Part shown: in pieces, positions 1,597 through 38,265 of the stretch
How positions within the stretch are numbered: the stretch's first letter is position 1
Layout: each line of letters starts with the position of its first letter
NCBI GenBank assembly: GCA_963622735.1
Contig: CAVFIT010000027.1
Coordinates: 1-51,411, forward strand
From: Phocaeicola dorei
GTDB lineage: Bacteria > Bacillota_I > Bacilli_A > RFN20 > CAG-288
Length of the DNA: 51,411 nucleotides
Direction: 5' to 3'
Translations under genes and position numbers: made by a program
Notes under the pieces: generated by a model
What the model was told of the DNA's origin: nothing
Database searches by the model: none
What the model saw: the letters and a program-made list of their open reading frames with translations, nothing else

Positions 1597-1617
1597 AAAA
1601 TTGTACTTGTTTAATCT

Positions 1618-2295: not shown

Positions 2296-2363
2296 TAAAT
2301 AAATTGAAATAGTCATTATTTATAGGCTAATTTATCTATAGTATTTATCTAACTAATTTATTA

Positions 2364-2918: not shown

Positions 2919-3419
2919 ACTTATTCAGAAACAGATTTTGCCACATTCAAAGAAAAAGCTACAGAAGCTTTAAAATCAGAAACAACTTATTCTTCTTGTA
3001 AAGTTGCTTTGAAAAAAACAACAACTACTGGTGGTAAAACAACAAACGAAAATTATGAAATTGACTACACTATTAATGGAAGAACATTTGTTGCTAAAGC
3101 TGATGCAAAAGCTGAAGCTCTATTATTTGCAGATATTATAAACGTTTATACATTAGATACTTTAATTAAGGTTGATTTATCAAATAATACAACTTATAAA
3201 TTCTATACAGGTGCTGCATTTAAATGTGAAAGAACAGTAGAAAGTAGTTTTTCAGCTCTTGGTGTTAAGTATGAACAAAAGCTTGTTGATTCTATTGAAT
3301 ATGATAATGATGGTTTTATAAAGAACTTTAAAGAAACATCTACTGAAAAAGGTTCTAGTTCTAGCGCTTCAACTACTAATAGTGGTGAAGAAACAGTTAC
3401 ATTTACCTATACTAAGTAA
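2847..3419 (+). CDS. Lipoprotein of unknown function (paralog B)
   Basis: MQLNFLKKAAVLSLGLVSLVSC|G lipobox. Conserved blocks ETDFATFK, GRTFVAKADA, YKFYT and C-terminal TFTYTK are shared with paralog A. Confidence 0.85.
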   Translation: MQLNFLKKAAVLSLGLVSLVSCGSTYSETDFATFKEKATEALKSETTYSSCKVALKKTTTTGGKTTNENYEIDYTINGRTFVAKADAKAEALLFADIINVYTLDTLIKVDLSNNTTYKFYTGAAFKCERTVESSFSALGVKYEQKLVDSIEYDNDGFIKNFKETSTEKGSSSSASTTNSGEETVTFTYTK

Positions 3420-3441
3420 TTAATATATTTAAAATAATAAA

Positions 3442-3474
3442 AGGTTAACATTTTATAAGTGTTAATCTTTTTTA
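3442..3474. terminator. Bidirectional terminator between convergent genes
   Basis: AGGTTAACA (3442-3450) pairs with TGTTAATCT (3460-3468, one G-U pair), followed by a T6 run. Overlaps the stop of the minus-strand MATE gene. Confidence 0.6.
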
Positions 3475-6901: not shown

Positions 6902-8257
6902 ATGAGTAAACATTATAAGACAACAGATTTATTAAAATTTGCATTTCCTACAATTATCATGATGATATTTGTAAATATATATGGTGTTGTTGATGCTTTA
7001 TTTGTTTCAAATATAGAAGGGGATACTGCATTTAGCGGTATGAATTTAATATTACCTTATGTTATGTTACTTGGTACATTTGGATATATGTTTGGTACAG
7101 GAGGCTCAGCTTTAATATCAAAAACATATGGTGAAGGTGATATAAAAAGAGGAAATAGATATTTTACAATGCTAATAGAAACTCTAACTGTTATTGGTGT
7201 AATATGTGCAATAGTTGGCTATTTTACTATTAAACCAGTTTCTCAATTATTTGGTGCTACTCAAGAAATGTTAGATTATTGTATAGATTATGGAACAATT
7301 ATTGTTATTTTCTTACCATTTTTTGTTATTCAAAATGCGTTTCAATCTTATATGGTATTAGCAAATAAACCTAATTTAGGATTTGTATTTTGCTTAATTG
7401 CTGGATTAACTAATACTTTATTTGATTTTATTTTCATTTATATATGTAGATTAGGAGTTATAGGTGCAAGTATAGCTACAGGTATTTCTCAAGTAGTTGG
7501 AGCTATTTTACCTGTAAGTTATATAATTTTATTTAAAGATAAGAATCAACTTAAATTTGAAAAAACAAAATATGAAATTAAACCAGTTGTTGATGCTGCT
7601 ACAAATGGACTTTCTGAAATGGTTGCAAATGTTTCTATGTCTTTAGTTAACATCTTATTTAATGCACAATTGATGCAATATATTGGACAAAATGGGGTTA
7701 CTGCATATGGAATTATTATGTATGTAGGATTCTTATTTACTGGAGTATATTTTGGTTATTCAGTTGGTGTTGCTCCAATTATTGGATTCCAATATGGTGC
7801 TAAAAATAATAAAGAATTACAGTCGTTATTAAAAAAGAGTTTATTAATATATGTAGGATTTGGAATAGTTTGTGCATCTAGTATTATCGGTTTAGCAAGA
7901 ATATTAGCTAGTGCTTTTATTAGAAATAACGAGGAATTATTAAATTTAAGTACATTAGCTTTACGTTTATATTCAATCGGTTATTATTTTTCAGGATTTA
8001 ATATATTTTTATCTTCCTTCTTTACAGATTTAAATAATGGATTTGTATCTGGTGTTATTTCTTTACTTAGAACATTAGTATTTCAAATAATTGCTATTTA
8101 TGTAATGCCATTATTATGGGGTATTAATGGATTATGGTTATCTATTGTAGCTGCTGAATTATTATCTTTAATTGTCTCTTTTGGTTTCTTATTTATAAAA
8201 AATAAACAGTATCATTACTTTAAAGAAAAAGAATTAGTACAAGAAAATCAAGCGTAA
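6902..8257 (+). CDS. MATE family efflux transporter, likely target of the divergent MerR regulator
   Basis: 451 aa polytopic protein; MATE N-terminus LLKFAFPTIIMMIFVNIYGVVDALFVS. Confidence 0.85.
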   Translation: MSKHYKTTDLLKFAFPTIIMMIFVNIYGVVDALFVSNIEGDTAFSGMNLILPYVMLLGTFGYMFGTGGSALISKTYGEGDIKRGNRYFTMLIETLTVIGVICAIVGYFTIKPVSQLFGATQEMLDYCIDYGTIIVIFLPFFVIQNAFQSYMVLANKPNLGFVFCLIAGLTNTLFDFIFIYICRLGVIGASIATGISQVVGAILPVSYIILFKDKNQLKFEKTKYEIKPVVDAATNGLSEMVANVSMSLVNILFNAQLMQYIGQNGVTAYGIIMYVGFLFTGVYFGYSVGVAPIIGFQYGAKNNKELQSLLKKSLLIYVGFGIVCASSIIGLARILASAFIRNNEELLNLSTLALRLYSIGYYFSGFNIFLSSFFTDLNNGFVSGVISLLRTLVFQIIAIYVMPLLWGINGLWLSIVAAELLSLIVSFGFLFIKNKQYHYFKEKELVQENQA

Positions 8258-8313
8258 AAACAGGATATTTTTGAATTTGATAAATAAAAAATAGTATTTA
8301 TATGTATGAAAAA

Positions 8314-8346
8314 AGACTTAGCTGTTGAACTAAGTCTATTTTTATT
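8314..8346. terminator. Bidirectional terminator (MATE gene / tRNA-Lys)
   Basis: AGACTTAG (8314-8321) / CTAAGTCT (8330-8337), with A-run upstream and T-run downstream. Confidence 0.65.
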
Positions 8347-8350
8347 TAAA

Positions 8351-8426
<76 letters not shown>

Positions 8427-8451
8427 ATTAGCGTATTAATAACGCTAAATA

Positions 8452-8480
8452 ATAATAATACATAAGCGCAATTTTTTCAA
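8452..8480 (-). promoter_or_regulatory. Candidate sigma-A promoter for tRNA-Lys
   Basis: On the minus strand: TTGAAA (8480-8475), 17-nt spacer, TATTAT (8457-8452). A 7-bp hairpin TTAGCGT/ACGCTAA (8428-8448) lies between it and the tRNA. Confidence 0.4.
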
Positions 8481-8570
8481 GTATTTTGTATAAAAGTTTT
8501 TAACTAGTGTTTTGTAATACGCTTTCATAATTAGTAAACTAACAAATTATTTACAAGTAATTTACAAAGA

Positions 8571-9809
8571 ATGAACAATCTAGTAAAATCATATTGTTTA
8601 AAAAAGGATACTTTAGATATGATTACTTCATTAAGTGTTAATACATTATCAAGTGTTAGTTCAATTTCTATAGGAAACTTTTTCTATCTTTTAGGTCAAT
8701 CACCTCTAATTGTAATTACAGTATTACTGGCTTTAGGGGTTGTTTTTATTAATGGATGGACTGATGCTCCTAACGCAGTTGCTACATGTATTTCAACAAA
8801 AGCTATTTCGCCTAAAAAGGCAATTATTATGTCAGCTGTATTTAATTTCATCGGCGTTATGATTTTCTCACTATTTGCAGCTGGTGTTGCTGATACAATT
8901 GCTGGAATTGTAGATTATGGTTCTTTCCAAGCTGGAGATGCTAGTTCAATATCAAATGCTAAAAACGCGTTAGTCGGTTTATCTGCTGGTATGATTGGTG
9001 TTGTTGCTTGGGGAATTCTAGCTTGGGCAGTTGGTGTTCCTTCATCTGAATCTCACGCATTAATTGCTGGTTTAACTGGATCTTGTTTTGCATTAATCGT
9101 AATGGGAAAAACAGCTACTCCAGGTGGACAAGCATGGGCTGAAGTAGGTATAGGATTTGTAATTTCAAGTGTAGTAGGGTTAGTCTTAGGATTTTTAGTT
9201 ACTCGCTTAATTGAAAAGATTTGTTATAAAATGACAAGAAGCAAGACTACTAAGTTCTTTAAGTGGGCTCAAATTACTTCTGCTGCAGGTATGTCACTTG
9301 CTCATGGCGCTCAAGATGGATTAAAGTTTGTTGGTGTTATTTATCTTTGTTTATATTTAGGAACTATCGCATTTCCTAATTCAAATATAGGTACACTAGT
9401 TAATCCTAATACAGAAGGTTTTTCTTTAAATTTTATTAATGCACCTGCATTTTTATGGTTACCTATATTAGTTTCATTAGTTATGGGTATTGGTACAAGT
9501 ATTGGTGGATATAGAATTATTAAAAAAGTCGGTATGGGTATGGTAGATTTACAACCTTATCAAGGATTTGCTACTGATATATCTGCTTTTATTGCTTTAA
9601 TGGTTTCTTCTTTATTTGGTTGGCCAGTTTCAACTTCTCAAGTTAAAACATGTTCTATTATTGGTGTTGGTTTAACTAGAGGTGTAAAAGCAGTTAACTG
9701 GAAAATCGCTTTAGATATGGTATTAACGTGGGTGTTTACTTTCCCAGGTTGTATATTGATTGGTTTTGTTATGACGTATTTGCTATTTGCTATACCAGGT
9801 ATTTGTTAA
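8571..9809 (+). CDS. pit: Inorganic phosphate transporter, PiT family
   Basis: Polytopic; GWTDAPNAVATCISTKA and AHGAQDG motifs. The real start may be ATG 8619 (Met17). Confidence 0.85.
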   Translation: MNNLVKSYCLKKDTLDMITSLSVNTLSSVSSISIGNFFYLLGQSPLIVITVLLALGVVFINGWTDAPNAVATCISTKAISPKKAIIMSAVFNFIGVMIFSLFAAGVADTIAGIVDYGSFQAGDASSISNAKNALVGLSAGMIGVVAWGILAWAVGVPSSESHALIAGLTGSCFALIVMGKTATPGGQAWAEVGIGFVISSVVGLVLGFLVTRLIEKICYKMTRSKTTKFFKWAQITSAAGMSLAHGAQDGLKFVGVIYLCLYLGTIAFPNSNIGTLVNPNTEGFSLNFINAPAFLWLPILVSLVMGIGTSIGGYRIIKKVGMGMVDLQPYQGFATDISAFIALMVSSLFGWPVSTSQVKTCSIIGVGLTRGVKAVNWKIALDMVLTWVFTFPGCILIGFVMTYLLFAIPGIC

Positions 9810-15337: not shown

Positions 15338-16501
15338 ATGGGATTAGAATTAAGAGATATAGTTAAAATTTATGATAATGGTTTCCAAGCTGTTACAGAT
15401 TTTAACCTTTCAATTAAAGACAAAGAATTCATAATTTTTGTTGGTCCTTCTGGATGTGGTAAATCAACAACATTAAGAATGATTGCTGGTCTTGAAACAA
15501 TTACAAAAGGTATATTTGATATTGATGGTAAAGTAGTAAATGATTTATCACCTAAAGATCGTGGTATCGCAATGGTCTTCCAATCATATGCTTTATACCC
15601 AAACTTAACAGTTTATGAAAATATGGCCTTTGGTCTTGAACTTGCTGGTTTTGATGAAGATGTTATTGAACAAAGAGTTAAAGAAGCCGCTGAAATTTTA
15701 AATTTAACAGCTTATTTAGATAGAAAGCCTAGAGCTTTATCTGGTGGTCAAAGACAAAGAGTCGCTTTAGGTAGAGCTATTATTAGACATGCTAAGATTT
15801 TCTTAATGGATGAACCTTTATCTAACCTTGATGCTAAATTAAGAGTTGAAATGCGTTCTGAATTAATTAAGATTCATAGACAAGTTGGTGCTACAACAAT
15901 CTATGTTACTCATGACCAAATCGAAGCTATGACAATGGCTGATAGAATCGTTGTTATGAACTTAGGTAGAATTCAACAAGTTGGTACACCTAAAGAATTA
16001 TATTTCCATCCTCAAAACTTATTCGTCGCAGGATTTATTGGTGACCCTCCAATGAATTTCATCAACGGACATTTAGATGGTAATAATTTTGTAAGTGATG
16101 ATGGTGTATTAACACTTGATATTTCTAACCAAGGTGAATATTACTTAAAATCATTAGAAGGTAAGAGATTAGTATTTGCTTATAGACCTGAACATGTTAA
16201 ATATGAAATAGGTACACCTAAAGCAGATTTCTATAAATTATCTGGTAAAGTCGAAGTTAGTGAAATGCTTGGTGATATTCAAAACGTTTATGTTAATATC
16301 GGTGCAGCTAAATCTGTATTAAAAGCAACTCCTAGCCAAACATTTGCAATTGATTCTAATGTTGAATATTATGTTGATAAACATGATGTTAGATTCTTTG
16401 ATGCTGACACAGAAAATGTTATCACAAATGAAGAATTAGAATATGGTAAAGCTGATTTAGGTAATCCAAAAGCTAAAAAAGTAGAAAAAATAGATAAATA
16501 A
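15338..16501 (+). CDS. Sugar-type ABC transporter ATP-binding protein (MsmK/UgpC/MalK-like), with no cognate permease adjacent
   Basis: Walker A GPSGCGKST, LSGGQRQR, Walker B FLMDEPLSNLD, and a MalK-type C-terminal domain. Confidence 0.9.
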   Translation: MGLELRDIVKIYDNGFQAVTDFNLSIKDKEFIIFVGPSGCGKSTTLRMIAGLETITKGIFDIDGKVVNDLSPKDRGIAMVFQSYALYPNLTVYENMAFGLELAGFDEDVIEQRVKEAAEILNLTAYLDRKPRALSGGQRQRVALGRAIIRHAKIFLMDEPLSNLDAKLRVEMRSELIKIHRQVGATTIYVTHDQIEAMTMADRIVVMNLGRIQQVGTPKELYFHPQNLFVAGFIGDPPMNFINGHLDGNNFVSDDGVLTLDISNQGEYYLKSLEGKRLVFAYRPEHVKYEIGTPKADFYKLSGKVEVSEMLGDIQNVYVNIGAAKSVLKATPSQTFAIDSNVEYYVDKHDVRFFDADTENVITNEELEYGKADLGNPKAKKVEKIDK

Positions 16502-16502
16502 T

Positions 16503-19055
16503 ATGTCAGGTGATATTACTTCAGTATCTAAAAAGGAATTAGATAGAAGAAACTTCATCCTGACAGGTAATATATGGAAAGTTGTTTTTACAATCAGCTT
16601 TCCTTTATTTTTATACTCGTTGTTTCAATATCTATATTCGTTTGTAGATGTTTTACTTGCTAACCAAATATCAAAAGAAGCTAGCGATTGTGTATCAATG
16701 ATTTCTCAATTTACTACCATGGTTCAATCTATTGGTGATGGATTAGCTGCAGGTGGTGCTATATTAATAGCTAGAGAAATAGGTAAAAATAATTATAAGA
16801 AAGCTCAAAGCTTATCAAGTACTTTATTTATTTATATTTTCGCAATTACTATATTAACTGATTTGATATTTATTCCTTTTGCTAAGCCTATTATGAGAAT
16901 GAATGGTTTAACAGAAGATTTAATTAATGTAGGGTATAATTACTTTATTATTAATATTGTTAATTCTTCAATTGTTATTGTTAATAGTGTATTTATTGGT
17001 TTACAAAAAGCTAAAGGATCTACTAAAAGTATTTCTTTATTTAACATAATGATTGTTCTTATTAAGATTGGCTTATCTTATTTATTTGTATATGGTCTTA
17101 ATCTTAAAGATACTACTTATATCGCTTTAGCTACATTATGTGCTAATTCTACATTGTTTATAATAATGTTATGTGGATATATGTTTAGAAAATCATATCT
17201 ATTCCACTTTTCGTTTAAAAATGTAGACTTCTCCTTTAAAACAGGCAAAAAAGTAACTCTTATATCATTTCCAATATTCTTAGGTAAGTTCGTATTTAGT
17301 TTTGGTAAAAGTATTATTAATACAATGACTGCTAATAAGTTTCCTAACCAAGGTGTAGTTGGTGCACTAGGTGTATCTAATTCAATAGGTGGAATGGGAA
17401 CTAAAGCTATGTCTAGTATTGAAGACTCAACTAGTAGTATTATTTCTCAAAACATCGGTAATGGTGATTATAAAAGAGCGTTACAAACTTTCTATGTAGG
17501 GTTAGTTTATAATGTGATTTTAGGAGTTGTTGCAGTTATTTTATTAACTGTATTTAATAATCAAATTGTTAGTTTTTATACTCAAAATATAACTGATGCA
17601 GCTAGTAGAGCTGAAAGAGAAGCAATGATTTCTGAAATTTTCTTTTATGAAAAGATGGGGATTATTACTTTAGGAATTAACTCAGCTGTACTTGGTTTAT
17701 TATACGGATTTGGCTATACAAAAATATCAATGGTTATTAATTTGTTAAGAGTATTTGGATTTAGAGTTCCATCATTAATTGCTATGTTTTATATATTTCC
17801 AAACTTTGGAATAGACTATGGTTGGAAAGCTGTAGGTATAGCGATGGGATTTTCAAATATAATGATTGGTATAGTAGCTATAATTGTTGCTATAATAATA
17901 GTAGTAAAAATTAAAAAACAAGAACAAAAAAGAAAGGAACTTCAAACTATGATTGATCAAACTAAAAAAGAGAAAGTAGAAAAGTTTATTAAAAACTATT
18001 TAAATGAATTTACTTTCTACAAAAAAGAAAAGAACATTAAATGGTGTTATGAAGATGGTATTGTATTAAATGGTGCAATGCAGCTTTATAAAACTACTAA
18101 AGATAAGTTCTACTTAGACTTTGTAGTAAATCATTTTGATCAATGTATTCAAGATGATGGTACAATTTTAACTTATTCCCCTGAAGAAAAGAACATTGAT
18201 AATGTAGAAGAAGGTATGTCTTTATTCTTACTTAATCAAATTAAGCATGAAGATAAATATGATAAAGCTTTAAAATTATTAGAATATCAATTAACAATCA
18301 TGCCTAGAACTAAATCAGGTTCTTTCTGGCATAAAGATATCTATCCAAATCAAATCTGGTTAGATGGTTTATATATGGGAATGCCATTTTATGCAAGTGT
18401 TACTTGTAGAGATCATTCTATTAAACAAAAAGATGATATTATTAACCAATTTAAAAATGTTGAAAAATATAATTATGAACCTAGCTTAAATTCATTTATG
18501 CATTGTTATGATGAGACAAAATCTATGCAATGGGCTAGTAAAGAAACTGGTAGATCTCCAAATGTTTGGTTAAGATCAGTAGGGTGGCTAGGTATGGCTA
18601 GTAGTGATGTTTATGAAATTTTTAAAGAAGGTGGATTTAGTTTATCTAAACGTTATTTAAAAGGTTTCTTACAAAAAGTCATCTCTACTATTGAACCATT
18701 AGAAGATAAAAAGACTCATTTATTCTATGATTTACCTTTATTACCTAATCAAGAAGGTAACTATTTAGAAACTAGTGGCTCTTTAATGATTGCATACGCT
18801 TATTTAAAAGGTGCTAGATTAAAGATGCTTGATTCTAGCGCAAGTAAAAAAGGTAGTGTCATTTTAGAAAGTGTTATTGATAACTATTTAACTGAAACAG
18901 AACTTAAAAACGTTTGTAAAGTATCTGGCCTTGATGGAAAGAAGAGAAATGGTAGTGTTGAATACTATCTTTCTGAAGAAGTTTGCTCTAACGATTCAAA
19001 AGGTGTTGCACCTTTAATGATGGCTTATAGTGAATATTTAAAGGCATGTAAGTAA
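16503..19055 (+). CDS. Fusion ORF: MATE-type 12-TM domain (aa 1 to about 470) plus unsaturated rhamnogalacturonyl/glucuronyl hydrolase domain (GH105/GH88 fold, aa 483-850)
   Basis: The N-terminal half is MATE-like. The C-terminal half has WCYEDGIVLNGA, IWLDGLYMGMPFYA, WLRSVGWLGMA and ETSGSLMIAYAYLKG. There is no stop between them in this sequence. Confidence 0.75.
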   Translation: MSGDITSVSKKELDRRNFILTGNIWKVVFTISFPLFLYSLFQYLYSFVDVLLANQISKEASDCVSMISQFTTMVQSIGDGLAAGGAILIAREIGKNNYKKAQSLSSTLFIYIFAITILTDLIFIPFAKPIMRMNGLTEDLINVGYNYFIINIVNSSIVIVNSVFIGLQKAKGSTKSISLFNIMIVLIKIGLSYLFVYGLNLKDTTYIALATLCANSTLFIIMLCGYMFRKSYLFHFSFKNVDFSFKTGKKVTLISFPIFLGKFVFSFGKSIINTMTANKFPNQGVVGALGVSNSIGGMGTKAMSSIEDSTSSIISQNIGNGDYKRALQTFYVGLVYNVILGVVAVILLTVFNNQIVSFYTQNITDAASRAEREAMISEIFFYEKMGIITLGINSAVLGLLYGFGYTKISMVINLLRVFGFRVPSLIAMFYIFPNFGIDYGWKAVGIAMGFSNIMIGIVAIIVAIIIVVKIKKQEQKRKELQTMIDQTKKEKVEKFIKNYLNEFTFYKKEKNIKWCYEDGIVLNGAMQLYKTTKDKFYLDFVVNHFDQCIQDDGTILTYSPEEKNIDNVEEGMSLFLLNQIKHEDKYDKALKLLEYQLTIMPRTKSGSFWHKDIYPNQIWLDGLYMGMPFYASVTCRDHSIKQKDDIINQFKNVEKYNYEPSLNSFMHCYDETKSMQWASKETGRSPNVWLRSVGWLGMASSDVYEIFKEGGFSLSKRYLKGFLQKVISTIEPLEDKKTHLFYDLPLLPNQEGNYLETSGSLMIAYAYLKGARLKMLDSSASKKGSVILESVIDNYLTETELKNVCKVSGLDGKKRNGSVEYYLSEEVCSNDSKGVAPLMMAYSEYLKACK

Positions 19056-23540: not shown

Positions 23541-23570
23541 AAATGACTTAGAATTAAATCTAGGTCATTT
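23541..23570. terminator. Bidirectional terminator between uxaC and the pectinesterase gene
   Basis: AAATGACTTAG / CTAGGTCATTT inverted repeat (one mismatch), flanked by A- and T-runs. Confidence 0.65.
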
Positions 23571-24505
23571 TATTTGTATTTTTTAATACATTCTTTATAA
23601 ATAGCAGGTATTTTATTTATTTGAGTAGACCATTCTACTCTATTTTTATTACTTGGATATTCTACAAAACGGGAAGTTAAATATCTTATAGATGATTTAT
23701 CCCAGTTATTAAAGCCTAATGAGTTAATATGATTACCATAATTACATTTAATAAATACTGATTTTCCAAAGTCTCTCCAAGGTCTACCTAGGTATACTCT
23801 TTGTTGAGGTATTGTTAAGGAAGTGAAATCACATTTATAAAACATAAATCCAAATTCATTTTTTAAGGAGTGGCCAGGAGCAGTAACATGAGATATAGAA
23901 TAAGACATATCTTCAATAGAGTCTATTTGACATTTATTAAAATATGCATCTCCTGCACCGAAGATAAAATCATTAGTACCTTGAATATAGCAGTTTTTAA
24001 AATATGTAAAACAGGTGCCTTGTTTATAACGTTCATCATCAGGTATAAAGTCTATATAACGTAAGACTAAATCATCAGGTAAAGGACCTATAAATAAAGT
24101 GTCTAGCATCGATTTAATTGTACATTTAATAAAATGATTGTTATTACCATATACACCTAGTGCGACTTGTTGTCCTTTTTTATATGGGTTAATTGAATCG
24201 TTAATTACAGTGATGTTTGTAAATGTGTTATTATCACCTGTAATTTTTAAACTAGCAGTTCTCCATGTGGAATTTTCTTTTCCATCCTCATTTTGCTGTC
24301 TAGCGTATTTACTACCGATTAATTTAACTTCTTTTATTCCGATAATATCAAAATTAGAGTAAGTAAATTTAATATTACCTTTAATAGTAGATGGTTTGAT
24401 TTTAATTGTATATCTGTTGGTTTTATCTACTTTTCTAATTTGTTTACAAATTGAATTTAGTTTAGATATATCTTCTATTGTATAAATGAATTTATTTTTG
24501 TTCAT
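23570..24505 (-). CDS. Pectinesterase (CE8), cytoplasmic
   Basis: QQVALGV, GTNDFIFG and YLGRPW motifs; no signal peptide. Confidence 0.85.
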   Translation of the reverse strand: MNKNKFIYTIEDISKLNSICKQIRKVDKTNRYTIKIKPSTIKGNIKFTYSNFDIIGIKEVKLIGSKYARQQNEDGKENSTWRTASLKITGDNNTFTNITVINDSINPYKKGQQVALGVYGNNNHFIKCTIKSMLDTLFIGPLPDDLVLRYIDFIPDDERYKQGTCFTYFKNCYIQGTNDFIFGAGDAYFNKCQIDSIEDMSYSISHVTAPGHSLKNEFGFMFYKCDFTSLTIPQQRVYLGRPWRDFGKSVFIKCNYGNHINSLGFNNWDKSSIRYLTSRFVEYPSNKNRVEWSTQINKIPAIYKECIKKYK

Positions 24506-25448: not shown

Positions 25449-25471
25449 GCCTTAGTGATAAGGCTTTTTTA
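25449..25471 (+). terminator. Rho-independent terminator
   Basis: GCCTTA / GTGA / TAAGGC followed by T6. Confidence 0.75.
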
Positions 25472-25622: not shown

Positions 25623-26453
25623 GTGTCTAAACAGTCATTTAAAGCATTGGATCTATTAGTATTTTCATTATTAAGTGCGGGTAGTGAAGCTCTTATAATA
25701 TTCGGATTTAATAATATAGGAAAATATGATGGGTACATTGTTTCATTTACCGTAGTACTTAGTTTAATATCTATCTATCGTTGGAATGTACTTGGGATAA
25801 TTCCTGGAATAGTAGGTGGGGCAACATCAATTTGTATGTCTCTAACTAAAGATATTTCATTAGGATACATATTAGCTAACACACTCTCCTATTTTTTCTT
25901 ATTATTTGTTCTTATTTGGTTTAAGAAAAATGATAAAAAGAAAATGCTAAGTGATTCATTGAAGATGATAGGCTATTACCTAAGCGGATACTTGTTGTTC
26001 GAGATAGGTAAATGCATATGCTTTGTAGTTGGTACACCTAATGTGGCTAACTTAGGTAAAGTTCTTATTACTTATGTAGTATGGGATTTACTTAATATCT
26101 TAGTTGGTGGAGCAGTGTTCTATATAGCTTGTAAGCAAAAAACAATTGTTTACGATATGAATCAATATCTAATTGAGCAACATAGTGGAACGCCTACTTC
26201 AAGAATTAGAGATGATGTTAGCAATTATTCTAAATTAGAAGAAATGGCTGAAGCTGATGATGTAAGTGATATTGCATTATTAGATGGAGGTACTCTTTCA
26301 GAAAGTGATTTAAAACTTATGAATGAGACATTTAGAAAACAGACAGGAGCTTCTAATAGATATGTGGAAGAGCAAAAAGCTAAACAAGCATATCAAAAAC
26401 AAAAAGACTTAAAAAAGTCAGATAAGGAAAATGGAGGTCGACAAGATGATTAA
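25623..26453 (+). CDS. Uncharacterised membrane protein of about 6 TM with a roughly 90-aa charged/acidic C-terminal tail; first gene of the ABC operon
   Basis: GTG start (uncertain, RBS spacing poor); six hydrophobic segments; tail EEMAEADDVSDIALLDGGTLSESDL...KQKDLKKSDKENGG. Confidence 0.65.
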   Translation: MSKQSFKALDLLVFSLLSAGSEALIIFGFNNIGKYDGYIVSFTVVLSLISIYRWNVLGIIPGIVGGATSICMSLTKDISLGYILANTLSYFFLLFVLIWFKKNDKKKMLSDSLKMIGYYLSGYLLFEIGKCICFVVGTPNVANLGKVLITYVVWDLLNILVGGAVFYIACKQKTIVYDMNQYLIEQHSGTPTSRIRDDVSNYSKLEEMAEADDVSDIALLDGGTLSESDLKLMNETFRKQTGASNRYVEEQKAKQAYQKQKDLKKSDKENGGRQDD

Positions 26454-28502: not shown

Positions 28503-30758
28503 ATGAAAATCAAAAAAAGCATGTTCGCATTACTTGCAACTGGTTTACTTGCAGTAACTAGCTGTAATAATACAAATTCTGGTAGTTCTTCAACTAGTAG
28601 TGCTAGATCTTTACCTAGTGGTGATGGCGAAACAATTAATATGTCAGTCATGTATCAAAAATCTGGTACAAGAATGAGCTATGCTAGTGATGATGAAGAT
28701 AATAAAGTCTTCAAAGATTTTAGACAAGATGGAAAATCTGCAGAAGATGGTTATTCAGATGATTCTAATGGATACACCCATAATGGTAAAACTTATCATA
28801 AAGGTGATTTAAAACCAGTTTGGAAAGCTGTTCAAGATAAATTAAACTTCAAAATTGGTGATAAAACTCCTACTTCTTCAACAAAAATTGCGGATGCATT
28901 TAGTTTATTACAAACAAATGCCTTTGCTGATGTAAACATCGCTCAAGGTTCTGCTTCTTCAATTGTTGATGAAGGTACAACAAAAAATACAATTCTTGAT
29001 TTAAATGAATATCTTGATTTAATGCCTAATTTCAGATCATTCTTAGAATCTAACCCTGCTATCAAAAATATGATTTCTGATGCTAATGGTAAAATCTATT
29101 ATGCTCCTTACTTTGATGGTATGGATGATATAGAAAGAACATTATTAGTTAGAGTTGATTGGGTACAAACATTATTAGATGGCGATTTACCTACTGATGG
29201 TAAAACATTAGATAATTTAGGTGCATATACTCCTTTCTATCCTGAATCTGAAACTAAAACAGTAGAAGTTGTTAAAGCTGATGGAACTGGTAAAACAACT
29301 ATCACAAAGAAAAAGACTAAGAATATTATTACAATTCAAAATAGTTTAGCCACAAAATCTGGTAAAGAATTAGTTAAAGCATTAAGAGATTATATTGATT
29401 CAACATACGCTGGTGTTTATACAAAGAGATCTGATTTATTCTGTGGACAAAATGCTGCTTATGATGTTGATGAATTAATTGCTTTATTTAGATGCGTTAA
29501 GGCTTGTAGTGCTACATTAACAGGTGAAGCCGATAAAGATATTTATCCTTTATTCCCTAGAGATGAAACAAATGATAGAACAGCTGACTTATGGAGATTT
29601 ACACAATTCTTCGGTGTAAGAGGTGGTGAATCTAGAAGTGGCTACTTATACATTGATAGCGAAGGTAAAATTAAAGATGCAAGAGGCCAAGCTGATATGG
29701 CTAATGCAGTTGAAAAATTAAATCAAATGTATAAAGAAGGTTTAATTTTAAAGAACTTTGATAGTAGAACTTCTGCTGGTCTTGATAATTCTGAATTCAG
29801 AAAACAATTATTACAAGGTAAGAAGATGTATGGTTTTGCTACATATGATTATGTACAAACATCAGTTGTCTTCAATGATGATGATTCTATTAATAGTCAA
29901 AATGACGGTAAATTCTTATTTGCACCTATTATGCCTGCTACAGCAAAATGGAATGGATCTGATAATTACTCATTCTTTACTGAATCATGGAGAAGTGTTA
30001 AGACAGAAGGTTGGTTTATCACAGCTGCTACAGCAAATGATGAAAAGAAATTATCTAAGTGCTTACAAATCTTTGATTACTTCTATTCAACTGAAGGTAA
30101 CAGATTAATGTCTTATGGACCTGATGAATATTTAGCACACGATGCAAATAACAATATTAAATATATTAACTATCAAGGAAAACAAGTCCCTCAATTATCT
30201 GATGAAACATTACAAGAAATAAAAGTTAAAGCAGCTGGTAACTATACTAACTACTATCGTTATTGGATTGGTGCTACATATCCAGTTGGTTATGTTAAAG
30301 AACAAGGTATGGAATATCAAACAGTTTCTACTCATAAAAATACTGATGGTGTTTCTGCTAGAGATTATTTAGATAGAATTAACAATGCTATTTCTACTGG
30401 TGTATTAAAGCATGTCAATTTTGCTACAGATAATGCAGATAAGTTCTATAACATTGTTCCTACAACATTCTCATTTAAAAAGAGTGAACAAACAGCCGTC
30501 AGCTCTAACTATACTGATTTAGATGGTTATATTAATAACACAAAAGGTAAGACAAATGCTTGGACAAAGATTGTTAAATCTGATACAGGATTTGCTGGCG
30601 CTGATGCTGATAAATTTACAACAAAAGATACTTATATAAAATATATTAACGAAACATTAAAATGTGATAGTTTAGTTGAAATTTATCAAAGAGCTTATGA
30701 TAGAATGGTTGGTAATACAACAACTACTGCCGCTATTATAGGTAAAGAAAATTACTAA
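28503..30758 (+). CDS. Extracellular solute-binding lipoprotein (LplA/YtcQ-like), unusually long at 751 aa
   Basis: Lipobox LLAVTSC|N, a Ser-rich linker, and operon position after the two permeases. Confidence 0.85.
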   Translation: MKIKKSMFALLATGLLAVTSCNNTNSGSSSTSSARSLPSGDGETINMSVMYQKSGTRMSYASDDEDNKVFKDFRQDGKSAEDGYSDDSNGYTHNGKTYHKGDLKPVWKAVQDKLNFKIGDKTPTSSTKIADAFSLLQTNAFADVNIAQGSASSIVDEGTTKNTILDLNEYLDLMPNFRSFLESNPAIKNMISDANGKIYYAPYFDGMDDIERTLLVRVDWVQTLLDGDLPTDGKTLDNLGAYTPFYPESETKTVEVVKADGTGKTTITKKKTKNIITIQNSLATKSGKELVKALRDYIDSTYAGVYTKRSDLFCGQNAAYDVDELIALFRCVKACSATLTGEADKDIYPLFPRDETNDRTADLWRFTQFFGVRGGESRSGYLYIDSEGKIKDARGQADMANAVEKLNQMYKEGLILKNFDSRTSAGLDNSEFRKQLLQGKKMYGFATYDYVQTSVVFNDDDSINSQNDGKFLFAPIMPATAKWNGSDNYSFFTESWRSVKTEGWFITAATANDEKKLSKCLQIFDYFYSTEGNRLMSYGPDEYLAHDANNNIKYINYQGKQVPQLSDETLQEIKVKAAGNYTNYYRYWIGATYPVGYVKEQGMEYQTVSTHKNTDGVSARDYLDRINNAISTGVLKHVNFATDNADKFYNIVPTTFSFKKSEQTAVSSNYTDLDGYINNTKGKTNAWTKIVKSDTGFAGADADKFTTKDTYIKYINETLKCDSLVEIYQRAYDRMVGNTTTTAAIIGKENY

Positions 30759-30766: not shown

Positions 30767-30794
30767 GTTAGAAGGGAGAAATCTCCCTTCTAAC
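30767..30794 (+). terminator. Perfect 13-bp stem hairpin after the binding-protein gene (intra-operon attenuator / mRNA stabiliser)
   Basis: GTTAGAAGGGAGA (30767-30779) / TCTCCCTTCTAAC (30782-30794), followed by TTATATTT. Confidence 0.6.
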
Positions 30795-30826: not shown

Positions 30827-31453
30827 ATGGAAAACGTAACTAGCAATTCTTCACTTAAAGAAAATAAAATATTTAAAGATAGCCGCATTGCTAAAGTTCA
30901 AAAAATGATTTGGTGGGTAATGCTATTAGTGTTTGCTTTACTTTGTGTATATGCTTTAGTAATGTCTACACCTATTGCTAATTTAATGTTTGCTGATGAA
31001 GATGGTTTAGCAGATATGTTAAATTATATGAAACCATTAAATGATGCAATCATTTTATTAGGTATATTTGGTATATTATTTGCATTTGGATATAAACTTA
31101 CTAGATCTAATGTTAGAGGTAAATATTACATATCAAATTTTGTGTTCATGATTGCTCAATCAATTTACACATTAGTTGCAGGTGTTGTTTCCTTAATTAT
31201 TGTTATTAAATATCAATCTATGTACAATAATTTAAGATTTGAAGATATTAATGATGTTTTATATTTCACAAAGCCTGGTGTAGAAATGAAACCTAGTGAT
31301 ATTATTGGAATGGCTGCATTCGGTTATATCTTAGCAGTAGTTATTATATTAGTTACATTATTAAGTGTTTATGTTCTTGTTGGAAAATACTTAAAAGAAA
31401 AAAGTGAAGTTAAAAATATTGAAACTACAGCTGATGTAGAATTAGGAAAATAA
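30827..31453 (+). CDS. Uncharacterised 4-TM membrane protein (208 aa)
   Basis: AGGAG RBS; polar N-terminus, 2 TM, basic loop (KLTRSNVRGKYY), 2 TM, charged tail. Confidence 0.7.
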   Translation: MENVTSNSSLKENKIFKDSRIAKVQKMIWWVMLLVFALLCVYALVMSTPIANLMFADEDGLADMLNYMKPLNDAIILLGIFGILFAFGYKLTRSNVRGKYYISNFVFMIAQSIYTLVAGVVSLIIVIKYQSMYNNLRFEDINDVLYFTKPGVEMKPSDIIGMAAFGYILAVVIILVTLLSVYVLVGKYLKEKSEVKNIETTADVELGK

Positions 31454-31464
31454 GGAGATTACTT

Positions 31465-32058
31465 ATGGAAAAAGAAAATAAAACTAATGAATACATTGAT
31501 GTAGAAAATACTCCAACAAAAAAGAGATCATTCTTTAATAGAATTGGTACTAATATTCAAGCTTATTTCAAACCTACAGATGTTCAAAAAGATATTTTAA
31601 GATATAAATCAAACTCATTAGCTAGATCATTTTGCTTTATAGCTATTATATGTAACTGTTTAGCATTCTTATTTGTCTATTCTACAATGACTAAGGTTTC
31701 TTATTTAACTGGTATTGATATCGTATTTAACATTTTATTCATGTTATTTACATTCTTAACAGCTGAAAAAATCAAAGTTTATAATAAGAATTCTTCCTTT
31801 GCTGCTTTAGGATTAGGTTTATTAGAAATAACACATTATTTCTGGTATATATTAATTATCTATACACAAGAAGGTTCTATTGAAGCTTGGGTTAACTATG
31901 CTGATTTAATTTTAATGATGGTATCTGGTGGCTTATTAATTGTTGCTGCTATTGCTAACTACTTTAGAAGTAGCATCCTTGAGAATTATTTAAATACTCT
32001 TGCTGAAACAGACGCTACAGCTAAATTAGATTTATTAAGTAAGAAAGGTGGTAAATAA
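31465..32058 (+). CDS. Uncharacterised 4-TM membrane protein (197 aa)
   Basis: AAGGAG RBS; same topology as the previous gene (basic loop EKIKVYNKNSS). Confidence 0.7.
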   Translation: MEKENKTNEYIDVENTPTKKRSFFNRIGTNIQAYFKPTDVQKDILRYKSNSLARSFCFIAIICNCLAFLFVYSTMTKVSYLTGIDIVFNILFMLFTFLTAEKIKVYNKNSSFAALGLGLLEITHYFWYILIIYTQEGSIEAWVNYADLILMMVSGGLLIVAAIANYFRSSILENYLNTLAETDATAKLDLLSKKGGK

Positions 32059-32061
32059 TAT

Positions 32062-33132
32062 ATGGCATCATTATCATTACAACATCTTCAAAAAGTTTAT
32101 GATAACGGCGTATTAGCTGTTGAAGACTTCAATCTTGAAGTTAAAGATGGAGAATTTATTGTCTTAGTTGGTCCTTCTGGATGTGGTAAATCTACTACAT
32201 TAAGAATGATTGCTGGCTTAGAAGGTATTACTTCTGGTAAATTCTACATTGGAGATAAAGACGTTACAAATAAAGCTAGTAAAGATAGAGATATCGCTAT
32301 GGTTTTCCAAAACTATGCTTTATATGGTAACATGTCAATTTATCAAAATATGGGTTTCTCTTTAATGTTAAGAAAAGAAGATCCTGAAATTATTCACCAA
32401 AAGGTTATGGCTGCTGCCAAAATCTTAGACTTATATGCTCAATTAAATAAAAAACCTGCAGCTTTATCTGGTGGTCAAAGACAAAGAGTTGCTATGGGTA
32501 GAGCTATTGTTAGAGATCCTAAAGTATTCTTATTTGATGAACCTTTATCAAATCTTGATGCTAAATTAAGATCTTCAATGAGACGTGAAATTAAATTATT
32601 ACACCATAGATTAGGTGCAACAATGTTATATGTTACTCATGACCAAACAGAAGCTTTAACACTTGCTGATAGAATCGTTGTTATGTCAATGGGTAAAGTC
32701 CAACAAATTGGTACTCCTAATGAAATCTATAACGATCCTAACAATATGTTTGTTGCTTCATTTATTGGTACACCTCCTACAAATTTCTTCCATGGACATG
32801 TCCAAGAAAATACATTTGTAAGTAAAGATGGTGAAATTGTATTTAATTTACCTAAAGGCTATTCTAAATTAGCTAATGTAAATGATTTAGTATTAGGTGT
32901 TAGACCTGAACATGTTCATCTTGGCGGAAATGTTAATTTCACAGTTGAATTAGTTGAACACTTAGGACCTTATTCATTAGTACATGGTAAATTAGATGGA
33001 ACTGATTGTGTATTTAAACTTAAAGGTTGGTTAGAATATGCAGTTGGAGAAGTAATTAAGATTGGCATTGATACAGAAAAAGTTTATTTCTTCGCTGATG
33101 AAGATGGACAACGTATTAGAAAGGATAACTAA
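32062..33132 (+). CDS. Sugar-type ABC transporter ATP-binding protein (MsmK/MalK-like)
   Basis: GPSGCGKST, LSGGQRQR and FLFDEPLSNLD; paralog of 15338..16501. Confidence 0.9.
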   Translation: MASLSLQHLQKVYDNGVLAVEDFNLEVKDGEFIVLVGPSGCGKSTTLRMIAGLEGITSGKFYIGDKDVTNKASKDRDIAMVFQNYALYGNMSIYQNMGFSLMLRKEDPEIIHQKVMAAAKILDLYAQLNKKPAALSGGQRQRVAMGRAIVRDPKVFLFDEPLSNLDAKLRSSMRREIKLLHHRLGATMLYVTHDQTEALTLADRIVVMSMGKVQQIGTPNEIYNDPNNMFVASFIGTPPTNFFHGHVQENTFVSKDGEIVFNLPKGYSKLANVNDLVLGVRPEHVHLGGNVNFTVELVEHLGPYSLVHGKLDGTDCVFKLKGWLEYAVGEVIKIGIDTEKVYFFADEDGQRIRKDN

Positions 33133-33134
33133 TT

Positions 33135-33782
33135 ATGGCAGAAAAAGATGAAAATATAATTTCTGAAGAAGTCAAAGTTGATTCTTCTAGTACAATTGAC
33201 CAAGCAAGTTATACTAAATCTGGATTTGAACTTTCATTAAATAGATCTTTAATTTCATTAAAAAATCATATTTATAAAGTTCCTATGTTAGTAACTATCT
33301 TAAGTACAATTTTCTTCTATTGTACAATCTTTATTAAGGTAAGAGCTATATTTGTTTTACCTAACAATAATGCAGTTACAGATTTCTATACAGCTATGTA
33401 TTCTACTAGTGGTATGTTATTCTTCTTTACAGCATTATTCTCAATATTATTTGTTGTAGCTTATATGAATGCTAATGGTAAACATGTCTCTAGTAAAAAG
33501 AAGTGGACAATGATGACTATTTATTATGTTATGGCTGCTGCTCAAATAGCATTAGATGTAATGTTAATATTAACATTAAATAAATATATTTCTGATTATC
33601 CTGATATTGGTTATAAAGTTAATGATAGTGTTAATATGCAAGTTATGCCAGTTTCAGTTACATGGTCTTGGATTCATATTATTACATTATGTTTAGCAAT
33701 TGTTTTATCAATTTTAGCAATTGTTTTACAACCTGCATTTAAGAAAATTAAAGTTGATATTTCTTTTAAAAAGAAAATATAG
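33135..33782 (+). CDS. Uncharacterised 4-TM membrane protein (215 aa)
   Basis: Same topology class (polar N-terminus, 2 TM, basic loop NANGKHVSSKKKW, 2 TM). Confidence 0.7.
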   Translation: MAEKDENIISEEVKVDSSSTIDQASYTKSGFELSLNRSLISLKNHIYKVPMLVTILSTIFFYCTIFIKVRAIFVLPNNNAVTDFYTAMYSTSGMLFFFTALFSILFVVAYMNANGKHVSSKKKWTMMTIYYVMAAAQIALDVMLILTLNKYISDYPDIGYKVNDSVNMQVMPVSVTWSWIHIITLCLAIVLSILAIVLQPAFKKIKVDISFKKKI

Positions 33783-33800
33783 ATTAGAAAAATTAAATAA

Positions 33801-34343
33801 ATGAAAAATAAAGATAATAATTCTATTACTAATAATGAAACTAAACAAGAAGATAATATCTATAAAGTTTCTTTCTTAGGTAGAATACCTTACGTCATCA
33901 AAGCTTTATTTATAAAATATTGGTTCTTTGGCGCTGCTTATTTCTTTATTAATATGGGCCTAGGAACTTATATGAGTGATTCCTGGGCCTTAACTATTAT
34001 TAATGGATTATTTCTAGGTATATGCTATGATTTTCTAATATTTCCAATATTTAAAATAATGGATACATATAAAGAAGAATCTAGAAATCATGTTTTATTT
34101 AGAAATAGAAAATTCTATTCTGTAATAATTAATATTGCATATGGAGTAGTTCTAGCAGTAGTTACTTATACAATTTGTTCTTGCTTTACTTTGTTAATTG
34201 CTAAAGTTAGAGTTGGTACATGGTGGTTTAGAGAACCATTTAGTTATGCTTTAGTTAATCTTATAGTTGATAGTGCATTCTTATCAATTAAATATGGATT
34301 AGTATGTTTAATTAAAAAATTATTTAATAGGGAGACTTTATAA
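33801..34343 (+). CDS. Uncharacterised membrane protein (180 aa, about 4 TM)
   Basis: Hydrophobic segments; its stop overlaps the start of the GH28 gene. Confidence 0.65.
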   Translation: MKNKDNNSITNNETKQEDNIYKVSFLGRIPYVIKALFIKYWFFGAAYFFINMGLGTYMSDSWALTIINGLFLGICYDFLIFPIFKIMDTYKEESRNHVLFRNRKFYSVIINIAYGVVLAVVTYTICSCFTLLIAKVRVGTWWFREPFSYALVNLIVDSAFLSIKYGLVCLIKKLFNRETL

Positions 34344-35884
34344 TGAAATTCAATGCTTTATTTATATCAGCAACATCCGCTTGTTTTGAATTAGTTAATA
34401 ACGATATTTATTTTTGTAAAGATAAATATGATGTTTTAGTTAACGGTGAAAAAGTTTTATCTGATATAAATACAAATGTATTTTCTATTTATGATTTACA
34501 ACCTAATAGAAAATATACCATTCAAGTAGGAGATGATAAACTTGATATCACTACAAAAAATGTCTCTATTATTCTTCATTCAAAAGATTTTGTAAATCCT
34601 TCAAAAACTAATGATGATACATTGACTTTACAAGCTGCAATTAATTGCTTACCTAAAAATGGATTATTAGTTATTGATGAAGGTGATTATCATATTACAA
34701 CATTATTTTTAAAATCTGATATGACTTTACAGCTTAATAAAGGTGCTAGATTGTTAGCAAATACTGATATTAATAGTTACCCTTTAATTCCTGGTGAAGC
34801 TAAATATTATGATTCAGATAAAATGATGCAACTTGGTTGTTGGGAAGGTAATCCATTTGTTTGTAAAACAAGTATTATTACAGCTTTCCATCAAGAAAAC
34901 ATTGATATTGTCGGTTTAGGTACAATTGATGGACAAGCTCAAAATTCTGATTTCTGGAAAGATGTTAAAAAACTACCTTGGGGTAGACCTAGAGATATTC
35001 ATTTCAACGATTGTAAAAATCTAAATATGCATGGTGTTACTATTTGTAATACACCTTGTTGGACAATTCACCCTTATTTTTGTGATCACACAGGTTGGTA
35101 TGATTTAATTGTTAATAATCCTGCTACTGGAGCTCCTAATACTGATGGTATGGATCCAGAAGCTTGTGATGATATTAAAGTAATTGGTGTAAATTTCTCA
35201 GTTGGTGATGATTGTATTGCTGTTAAATCTGGTAAATACTATATTGGTAAAACCTATAAAAAACCTACAAAGAATTTAGTTATTAGAAACTGCTACATGC
35301 ATAGAGGCCATGGTGGGGTAGTTCTAGGTAGTGAAATTGGTGCTGGTACAAAAGATATTCAAGTTGAAAGATGTATCTTTGAAGGTACTGATAGAGGCTT
35401 AAGAATAAAAACTAGAAGAGGAAGAGGCAAAGATTCAGTTATTGATGGTGTCGTATTTAAAGATATCATTATGAAAAATGTTTTAACTCCTTTAGTTGTA
35501 AATATGTTCTATTTTTGTGATCCTGATGGAAAAACAGAATATGTTTATTCAAAAGAAAAATTACCTGTAGATGACAAAACACCTTATATAGGTAGTTTCG
35601 TATTTGACAATATTCACGCTACAAACGCTGAATATGCATTAGGTTGGTTTTATGGATTACCTGAACAACCTATCGGTTCAATTACTATTAAAAATTCATC
35701 ATTTACAGTTAAAAAAGACGCAAAGCCTGGTATGCCTGCAATGATGTCTTATATTGATGAACAATGTAAACTTGGTTTTTACTTTAATAACGTTAAAAAT
35801 GTTAAATTTGAAAATGTAGAAGCAAGTGGATTTGAAGGTGAAAAAGTTATTTTAAATAACGTAGATTCATTTAAAGAGGAATAA
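34343..35884 (+). CDS. Glycoside hydrolase family 28 (exo-polygalacturonase type) with N-terminal beta-sandwich domain
   Basis: GH28 motifs NTDGMDPE, GDDCIAVKSG, RGHGGVVLGSE and RIKT. Confidence 0.9.
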   Translation: MKFNALFISATSACFELVNNDIYFCKDKYDVLVNGEKVLSDINTNVFSIYDLQPNRKYTIQVGDDKLDITTKNVSIILHSKDFVNPSKTNDDTLTLQAAINCLPKNGLLVIDEGDYHITTLFLKSDMTLQLNKGARLLANTDINSYPLIPGEAKYYDSDKMMQLGCWEGNPFVCKTSIITAFHQENIDIVGLGTIDGQAQNSDFWKDVKKLPWGRPRDIHFNDCKNLNMHGVTICNTPCWTIHPYFCDHTGWYDLIVNNPATGAPNTDGMDPEACDDIKVIGVNFSVGDDCIAVKSGKYYIGKTYKKPTKNLVIRNCYMHRGHGGVVLGSEIGAGTKDIQVERCIFEGTDRGLRIKTRRGRGKDSVIDGVVFKDIIMKNVLTPLVVNMFYFCDPDGKTEYVYSKEKLPVDDKTPYIGSFVFDNIHATNAEYALGWFYGLPEQPIGSITIKNSSFTVKKDAKPGMPAMMSYIDEQCKLGFYFNNVKNVKFENVEASGFEGEKVILNNVDSFKEE

Positions 35885-35886: not shown

Positions 35887-36441
35887 ATGCAAGATGTAAA
35901 TTATATTTATTTATCAATGACAACATCAATTGATAATTCTATTATCATGAAGATGTTTTCGCGTATTTTAAGTGATTATAAATATGATATAGATTTTGTA
36001 GATGATGTTATTAGTTTATCTTTAAATGGTGGTAGTAAGTCATTATCAATTTTACAAGCTAGTTTACAAGCGATGGGAGAAGATGTTAATACTCATTTTA
36101 AAGGATTAGTTTGTCCTTGCTTTAATGATAATTTTCCTAAATACTTAAAATTTGTAAAAGAAGATAAATTTTTATACCTTTTTGAAATTTCTCAAATGCA
36201 TAAAGACTTATATTGTGATAATATAAATATGTTAGATGGTATTGATGATTATACACTTGAATCAGTTAAGTGTTACATCGAAATGGGAAATTCACCTACA
36301 CTAGCTGCTTATAAGTTATTTGTTCATAGAAATACAATTACTTATAGAGTTGATAAATTTACTCAAGATTTAAGAATTGATTTATCAAGCTTTCCTAATT
36401 GTGTGTTTATTTACAATCTTATTTCAGCAAAATTAAATTAA
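35887..36441 (+). CDS. Short PucR/CdaR-type C-terminal HTH protein (candidate local regulator)
   Basis: C-terminal SPTLAAYKLFVHRNTITYRVDKF resembles the PucR HTH. Only 184 aa, and the usual large sensor domains are absent. Confidence 0.6.
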   Translation: MQDVNYIYLSMTTSIDNSIIMKMFSRILSDYKYDIDFVDDVISLSLNGGSKSLSILQASLQAMGEDVNTHFKGLVCPCFNDNFPKYLKFVKEDKFLYLFEISQMHKDLYCDNINMLDGIDDYTLESVKCYIEMGNSPTLAAYKLFVHRNTITYRVDKFTQDLRIDLSSFPNCVFIYNLISAKLN

Positions 36442-38213: not shown

Positions 38214-38234
38214 TTAACTTTTTGATAAAAATAA

Positions 38235-38265
38235 AGATATGTTAGATTTCTAGCATATCTTTTTA
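38235..38265 (+). terminator. Rho-independent terminator
   Basis: AGATATG ... CATATCT followed by TTTT. Confidence 0.7.

Follow-up and report, generated by a model that had tools for sequence, protein, structure and literature searches.

An importer operon with five additional membrane protein genes

The window, a stretch of 51,411 nt corresponding to contig CAVFIT010000027.1 of assembly GCA_963622735.1 (deposited as Phocaeicola dorei), has a G+C content of ~28% and carries an operon for an ATP-binding cassette (ABC) importer. Together with the importer genes, this operon encodes five additional membrane proteins, here called U, A, B, C and D, whose genes form with those of the importer a nine-gene block of fixed order. 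We propose that the five proteins may be dedicated membrane partners of the importer.

The operon lies on the + strand in a tightly packed gene row flanked by terminator-like hairpins (25449–25464 and 38233–38262); here and below, promoter and terminator assignments are pattern matches only. The first gene, U (25623–26453), codes for an uncharacterised membrane protein of 276 aa and overlaps by 23 nt with the gene for permease P1 (26431–27453, LplB/AlgM1-like). It is followed by the genes for a second permease, P2 (27475–28422, LplC/AlgM2-like), and for a lipoprotein solute-binding protein (SBP; 28503–30758) of 751 aa, homologous to AlgQ1/AlgQ2 and with a lipobox, VTSC, at residues 17–20. In the 68-nt gap between SBP and A, the pattern scan detected a + strand hairpin (30767–30794) with a perfect 12-bp stem containing 6 G-C pairs. 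This hairpin may serve as a partial terminator or an mRNA-stabilising element, giving more SBP than downstream membrane subunits. Beyond it lie A (30827–31453, 208 aa), B (31465–32058, 197 aa), the gene for a MalK/MsmX-like ATPase of 356 aa (ATP1; 32062–33132), C (33135–33782, 215 aa) and D (33801–34343, 180 aa).

The initial annotation had described four small proteins with four transmembrane (TM) segments around the ATPase gene of the importer operon, and the open reading frames (ORFs) of A–D were found exactly there. Their spacing is tight, with gaps of 11 nt between A and B, 3 nt between B and ATP1, 2 nt between ATP1 and C and 18 nt between C and D, and the stop codon of D overlaps the start of the next gene, which codes for a GH28 polygalacturonase. 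Shine-Dalgarno-like motifs precede A, B, C and GH28. The count of four holds for A–D; U, which belongs to the same conserved set, had been omitted.

Behind GH28 (34343–35884) the row continues with the gene for a small PucR-type HTH_30 regulator (35887–36441), kept in Bacilli-type loci only, and with genes for 2-keto-3-deoxy-6-phosphogluconate (KDPG) aldolase, 2-keto-3-deoxygluconate (KDG) kinase and then KduI. Upstream of the row are genes for UxaC, UxaA, a dehydrogenase of the tagaturonate reductase type, a pectin methylesterase, esterases and a second MalK-like ATPase. Because of these flanking genes for uronate catabolism and pectin breakdown, the locus is a pectin/galacturonate utilisation island. 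The pectin methylesterase (23570–24505, - strand, 311 aa) carries no hydrophobic N-terminal signal sequence, so that de-esterification may take place in the cytoplasm, on imported oligomers that are still methylated.

Conservation of the nine-gene block

Word-indexed searches for homologues of A, B and D gave only 4–5 close relatives each. An exhaustive profile search among 1.84 billion representatives, seeded on D only, showed that the D family comprises at least 213 clusters at 50% identity. Loci were then collected in two scans. In the first, a pattern derived from a 9-sequence alignment of D was sought in one genome per species and yielded 34 loci, all in metagenome-assembled genomes (MAGs) labelled Bacilli, Bacillales, Mollicutes, Erysipelotrichaceae, Clostridia or Oscillospiraceae, some of these labels being clearly wrong. 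Metagenomes scanned for a distant D subgroup with an N-terminal YYxLxxDxVD extension contributed 80 more loci, from rumen and gut. ORFs were called and labelled with hidden Markov models (HMMs) of the window families, and the results given below refer to 113 D-containing loci.

The order U-P1-P2-SBP-A-B-ATPase-C-D was entire in all 34 contigs that were long enough, and shorter contigs showed the matching truncated order. The gene upstream of D was C in 101 of the 113 loci, the others being nine contig starts and three pipeline misses. Seven loci that apparently lacked A or B proved on re-examination to contain both genes, their absence having been an artefact of ORF selection. No sampled D homologue was found outside the nine-gene block. 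The genes around the block differ in regulator type and catabolic content, while the block itself is constant. This gene-neighbourhood survey, an approach proposed in the initial annotation, shows that linkage with an LplABC-type transporter is strongly conserved. Apparent fusions of C to D (L034), U to P1 (L045 and L117) and D to GH28 (L046) were discarded as artefacts of a masked run of N or of alternative-frame ORFs in high-GC DNA.

Several module-bearing contigs from 'cleanbin' MAGs (L012, L026, L028 and L031–L033) are labelled Prevotella, Bacteroidaceae, Phocaeicola dorei, Azospirillum or Lachnospiraceae. The labels of these assemblies look unreliable, since gene content and order match those of loci labelled 'Bacilli bacterium'. 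In one related lineage (L008), a second copy of the 749-aa SBP gene lies upstream of U (1524–3773 and 7071–9320).

The five proteins appear to represent undescribed families

A–D are real genes under purifying selection and not chance ORFs, since they have orthologues in more than 100 loci and since their ratios of nonsynonymous to synonymous substitution rates (dN/dS; window against the related MAG locus L001) of 0.16–0.26 are like those of the ATPase (0.16) and SBP (0.26). Their orthologues are 79–86% identical in a related MAG and 40–61% identical in more distant relatives, in which the permeases share 77–81%. The possibility that these ORFs are spurious or decaying, for which only the missing annotation ('hypothetical protein [Bacilli bacterium]' in the public records) could be cited, is already refuted by these data together with the invariant motifs and the high-confidence fold of D described below.

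None of the window proteins U and A–D had a Pfam or NCBIfam match better than E = 0.005. A match to DUF624 (PF04854) was absent at E ≤ 1 for the window proteins and at E ≤ 0.01 for every member of the family alignments (29 sequences for A, 32 for B, 35 for C, 85 for D and 29 for U), in agreement with the initial annotation, which had called the proteins uncharacterised and had seen no clear likeness to DUF624. Pfam scans of all these alignment members returned scattered single-member chance matches and no consistent family. Sequence-profile searches of the PDB with all five families gave chance-level matches only, and a Foldseek comparison of the D model with the PDB gave a best E of 2.1 and TM-scores of ≤0.38. 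Kinase, PAS, HAMP and other signalling domains were absent from the Pfam scans of the five proteins. From these sequence and structure comparisons, the five families appear to be previously undescribed, and none appears to belong to a described family. Of the two outcomes that the initial annotation had named as refuting, confident matches to well-characterised families of unrelated function and a loss of linkage to LplABC-type transporters, neither was observed.

Two further kinds of known membrane component were considered by name. The extra proteins had no Pfam match to DctQ or TctB, the small subunits of tripartite ATP-independent periplasmic (TRAP) transporters and tripartite tricarboxylate transporters (TTT), and the operon contains no DctM- or TctA-like gene. 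Identity with S or T components of energy-coupling factor (ECF) transporters was rejected because no Pfam or NCBIfam ECF membrane-component model matched U, A, B, C or D; on the same HMM evidence, an S-component-like identity of U was rejected, and the score of ATP1 as an ECF ATPase is far below its score as UgpC/MalK.

In a shallow comparison with 2–5 sequences per family (blastp and hhalign), no relationship among the families was detectable, A and C reaching ≤1%. With deeper alignments (29–39 sequences each), hhalign aligned A with C over their full length (157 columns) with a probability of 84.7% and an E-value of 6.7e-6, a score that membrane-helix composition can inflate. The control pair P1–P2 reached 96.5%, whereas A–B gave 27%, U–B 19%, B–C 9% and all pairs with D ≤2% (B–D 0.9%). 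By alignment, distant paralogy is thus probable for A and C, and for B and D no relationship was detectable, either with A/C or between the two, so that they share a topology without demonstrable ancestry. The earlier suggestion that the first three proteins (A, B and C) are distant paralogues is therefore only partly supported, by the score of A with C and not by those of B.

Topology and conserved surfaces

In each of A–D, four hydrophobic segments are accompanied by a polar N-terminal tail, a basic loop between TM2 and TM3 (3–5 K/R) and a basic C-terminal tail. By the positive-inside rule, the basic loop and tail predict that both termini lie in the cytoplasm (N-in/C-in). The initial annotation had credited only the first three proteins with a common architecture; D has the same topology, so that it extends to all four. 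In the AlphaFold model, D forms four long helices (pLDDT 91, pTM 0.83). The model of A likewise has four helices, at low confidence (pLDDT 54, with six close homologues only).

Conservation in these proteins follows the predicted topology. The best conserved parts are cytoplasmic juxtamembrane segments, namely the TM2–TM3 loop of A (conservation 0.70), the DILRYxxN motif preceding TM1 of B (0.68) and the pre-TM1 segment of C (0.60), whereas the outside loops of A, B and C are least conserved (0.22–0.39) and differ in length by tens of residues. This pattern disfavours substrate capture outside the cell and favours contacts within the membrane or at its cytoplasmic face.

The cytoplasmic loop of A holds the invariant RxxRxxYYxSN (R97, Y100, Y101, N104), while its outside loops vary in length. 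B, the best conserved of the four, has D-I-L-R-Y-x-x-N (R46, Y47, N50) before TM1 and conserved residues K104 and Y106 in its TM2–TM3 loop. Conserved in C are the pre-TM1 LK(N/R) (K43), F97 and H181, and in D the motif IPxxxKAxxxKxWFxGAxxFF, E145-P146 and D157. U has 5–6 hydrophobic segments, residues D10, E22 and R53 that are invariant among 29 orthologues, and an acidic cytoplasmic tail with the motif LLDGGTLSxxxL. This tail motif is nearly invariant in Bacilli-type loci, and the tail is missing from the shorter U proteins (174–226 aa) of Clostridia-type loci. In one lineage (L022 7455–8282, L024 7464–8285, L028 7421–8209 and L043 7487–8275), B is extended at its N-terminus by ~70–90 cytoplasmic residues, rich in charged, heptad-like sequence, that may form a coiled coil.

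The importer core and its dedicated ATPase

Both permeases contain the Pfam domain BPD_transp_1 and an EAA coupling loop (YEAARIDGATKG in P1 and EEAAIVDGANEF in P2). Among solved structures, the best matches of the core were AlgM1 for P1 (1e-63), AlgM2 for P2 (7e-71) and MsmX (1e-105) or AlgS (6e-100) for the ATPase. No Pfam SBP model matched the SBP; phmmer aligned it with AlgQ1/AlgQ2 (1e-16) and with Smon0123-type binding proteins (4e-9). The SBP ranges from 686 to 967 aa across loci (938–967 aa in some Clostridia-type loci, L035, L036 and L039), its solved relatives having ~500 aa. ATP1 has a Walker A motif (GPSGCGKST), a signature motif (LSGGQRQR), a Walker B motif (FLFDEP) and a TOBE/OB regulatory domain; it matched Pfam ABC_tran, OB_MalK and TOBE_2 and scored above the cut-off of NCBIfam UgpC. 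By homology, the core is a type I ABC importer of the CUT1, LplABC/AlgM type. Since this core is complete when compared with the AlgM1M2SS-AlgQ2 complex of Sphingomonas sp. A1 (PDB 4TQU), the five extra proteins would be additions to a canonical importer and not substitutes for an absent part.

No permease genes flank that of the second MalK/UgpC-like ATPase of the window (15338–16501, + strand, 387 aa). Orthologues of this protein, which group in a separate clade, are encoded near the module in loci of both types, Bacilli and Clostridia, and in many of the latter their gene is found 1–4 genes behind D; the protein could be a shared MsmX-type ATPase or a second motor subunit of the module. Identity is 0.68 and 0.72 within the two ATPase clades and 0.49 between them, and all ATPases but one have their nearest neighbour in their own class. 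Judged by this clustering, the ATP1 clade is dedicated to the module. Residues specific to the ATP1 clade occur at 12–15 per 100 in residues 88–235, a region that, mapped to MalK, takes in the helical subdomain in contact with the membrane subunits. In the regulatory domain they occur at 2.5 per 100.

Genomic association of D with cytoplasmic hydrolases

GH28 retains its four catalytic motifs (NTDG 266, GDDC 288, GHGG 322 and RIK 354) and, having no signal peptide, is predicted to be cytoplasmic. Among the 105 loci that are not cut by a contig end behind D, the next gene codes for a hydrolase in 94, belonging to GH28 in 78, GH88 in 15 and GH4 in 1, all of which are families of cytoplasmic pectin-oligomer hydrolases. 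Three separate 50%-identity clusters (P0050, P0052 and P0062) contain in-frame fusion proteins with D at the N-terminal end of GH28. Such a fusion is topologically consistent, since the C-terminus of D is predicted to be cytoplasmic and GH28 has no signal peptide.

A further ORF of the window (16503–19055, + strand) encodes an 850-aa protein that joins a MatE domain (MATE family, ~12 TM) to a C-terminal Glyco_hydro_88 domain (residues 495–848, 3e-67). This union of a multidrug-exporter-type membrane domain with a cytoplasmic unsaturated-uronyl hydrolase is unusual and parallels the D–GH28 fusions. To judge from its domain composition, it would be a second, independent example of membrane tethering of a pectin-oligomer hydrolase.

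Possible function of the five proteins

We give about even chances to the explanation that A–D and U serve a pectic-oligosaccharide ABC importer as dedicated accessory proteins in the membrane, with D docking a hydrolase at the exit of the importer. In such a system, P1, P2, an ATP1 dimer and the lipoprotein SBP would work, by homology, as a normal type I importer. A–D would surround the permease pair in the membrane and, since their conserved surfaces lie within the membrane and at the cytoplasmic face, would contact the cytoplasmic side of the permeases and/or ATP1 instead of substrate outside the cell. A and C, as probable paralogues, could take corresponding places on either half of the pseudo-symmetric P1/P2 dimer. 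D, with its cytoplasmic C-terminus, would hold an exo-acting cytoplasmic hydrolase (GH28 here, GH88 or GH4 elsewhere) at the transporter exit, and imported oligogalacturonides would be hydrolysed on emerging. A stricter version, in which U, A, B, C and D are stoichiometric subunits of a nine-component importer supercomplex and D couples import to the first hydrolysis step as in a metabolon, is tentative and in our judgement doubtful. Of the roles that the initial annotation had offered, accessory subunits fit the data best; a second substrate-capture module is disfavoured by the variable outside loops, and a regulatory role is weakened, as discussed below.

Several observations weigh against the accessory-partner explanation. 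The closest solved homologue (4TQU) is complete without such subunits, so that the core should suffice for transport. All 113 loci were seeded on D homologues, down to 26% identity, and the P1/P2/SBP clade was thus sampled only through D. Adjacency to a hydrolase is frequent and not universal, D being followed by a second ATPase instead in 10 loci. Of the three D–GH28 fusions, one keeps all catalytic motifs, and those of P0050 and P0062 are without all four (NTD, DD, GHG and RIK), which suggests a non-catalytic role of their GH28 part, perhaps in binding or structure. With B and D unrelated to A/C, the pseudo-symmetry argument covers one pair only. Finally, genomic evidence is what leads us to infer that the proteins associate physically with the transporter, that A and C are placed as proposed and that substrate is channelled to a hydrolase.

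The completeness of the core by homology to AlgM1M2SS-AlgQ2 also speaks for the strongest competing explanation, which we consider unlikely. Here, A–D, with or without U, would make up a membrane complex that is separate from the importer and has a function of its own in pectin catabolism, such as the uptake of another product or the export of a by-product, and would be inherited together with the importer only through the common pathway. Conserved polar or charged residues within helices (D157 in D, H181 in C and E22 in U) would suit a translocation path, and the function of five families without known relatives is unconstrained. However, linkage at the level of a pathway normally tolerates rearrangement, whereas the order of the block is fixed even where D shares only 26–45% identity. 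Moreover, the gene pairs are split around the ATPase gene with gaps of 2–3 nt, while the surrounding catabolic genes shuffle.

It is improbable that the five proteins are simply assembly or stabilisation factors, that is, scaffolds for the permeases or for the very large SBP. This idea overlaps with the accessory-partner explanation, from which it is not separable by sequence. Small four-TM proteins do act as scaffolds in TRAP and TTT transporters (DctQ and TctB), and an SBP of 686–967 aa is unusually large. Yet the outside loops, which would face the SBP, are the least conserved parts of A–C, and four different families plus U are many for scaffolding alone.

No more probable is a novel second membrane domain of 2 x 8 helices, with A+B and C+D as its halves, on the same ATPase dimer, resulting in two translocators on one motor or in a composite translocator. 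The symmetric layout A-B-[ATPase]-C-D with probable A–C paralogy and the ATPase clade dedicated to the module would fit such an arrangement, and the conserved cytoplasmic loops could be coupling elements. On the other hand, the lack of similarity between B and D means that the halves are not duplicates, A–D have no EAA-like coupling motif, two canonical permeases bearing one are already present, and the fold of D matches no ABC membrane domain in the PDB.

Slightly less probable again is a signalling role, in which the proteins, as sensors or regulators, would inform a transcription factor or the regulatory domain of the ATPase about transport flux or substrate. For BceAB-type exporters, membrane partners are known that sense the activity of the ABC transporter, and in Bacilli-type loci the small HTH_30 regulator gene follows GH28. 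However, the adjacent regulator varies by lineage (HTH_30, GntR/FCD or none) while A–D persist, the extra proteins contain no signalling domain, and the regulatory domain of the ATPase holds few of the clade-specific residues compared with residues 88–235. Among the explanations considered, we therefore favour dedicated accessory partners of the importer.

Implications

The system combines a CUT1/AlgM-type importer core with five apparently new protein families and is so far known only from uncultured organisms. The strict conservation of the five-protein set suggests either an expanded transporter architecture or a device that couples import to cytoplasmic hydrolysis. If the supercomplex were real, it would add a class with a new architecture to the type I ABC importers, found in uncultured Firmicutes of gut and rumen. 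The carriers are uncultured bacteria of these habitats with reduced genomes and apparently live on pectin fragments; for this reason, the module is a marker of, and possibly a key adaptation to, pectin-oligomer scavenging in gut and rumen ecosystems. The five families join the conserved membrane proteins that await a function, and the module, being well defined and nine genes long, is directly testable.

Comparison with known systems

Few membrane machines are as well understood as type I ABC importers, for which the accepted set of parts is two permeases, two copies of an ATPase and one binding protein. Among solved structures, AlgM1M2SS-AlgQ2 matches each of the four core parts best, and it likewise imports acidic uronate oligomers. 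Its structure comprises only M1, M2, S2 and Q2, with no counterpart of U, A, B, C or D, and its binding protein has ~500 aa, compared with the 751-aa lipoprotein encoded here. Complete with four kinds of subunit, it supports the earlier view that the additional genes are unusual for a CUT1/LplABC-type importer. A 2026 review on bacterial glycoside transporters does not mention accessory membrane subunits of ABC importers. Our literature search (DUF624, oligogalacturonide ABC transporters and accessory ABC proteins) found no such module, which, given its incomplete coverage, is weak evidence of novelty.

A conceptual analogy, and no closer one, exists with membrane-tethered hydrolases, in that the D–GH28 fusions and the MatE–GH88 protein of the window each join a cytoplasmic hydrolase to a membrane domain. 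We know of no described ABC importer with a dedicated hydrolase-tethering subunit.

Pectin importers of Bacillus use a shared MsmX ATPase that is encoded elsewhere. The LplABC, YtcQP-YteP and YesOPQ systems of Bacillus pectin loci resemble the importer described here in permease and SBP types, in their pectin context and in having an adjacent small uncharacterised membrane protein. A DUF624 gene lies within the rhamnogalacturonan locus of B. subtilis (PMC6120924). In contrast to the single DUF624 protein (YesL, YesV or YteU) of the Bacillus loci, the present block encodes five non-DUF624 proteins in a fixed order, interleaved with a dedicated ATPase.

DctQ of TRAP transporters and TctB of TTT systems are poorly conserved proteins of ~160–230 aa with four helices and N-in/C-in topology, and each is the obligate partner of a larger translocator. 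They are like A–D in size, topology and co-occurrence, a functional analogy as membrane scaffolds. Whereas the partner of DctQ and TctB is a secondary transporter, that of A–D would be an ATP-driven type I ABC importer.

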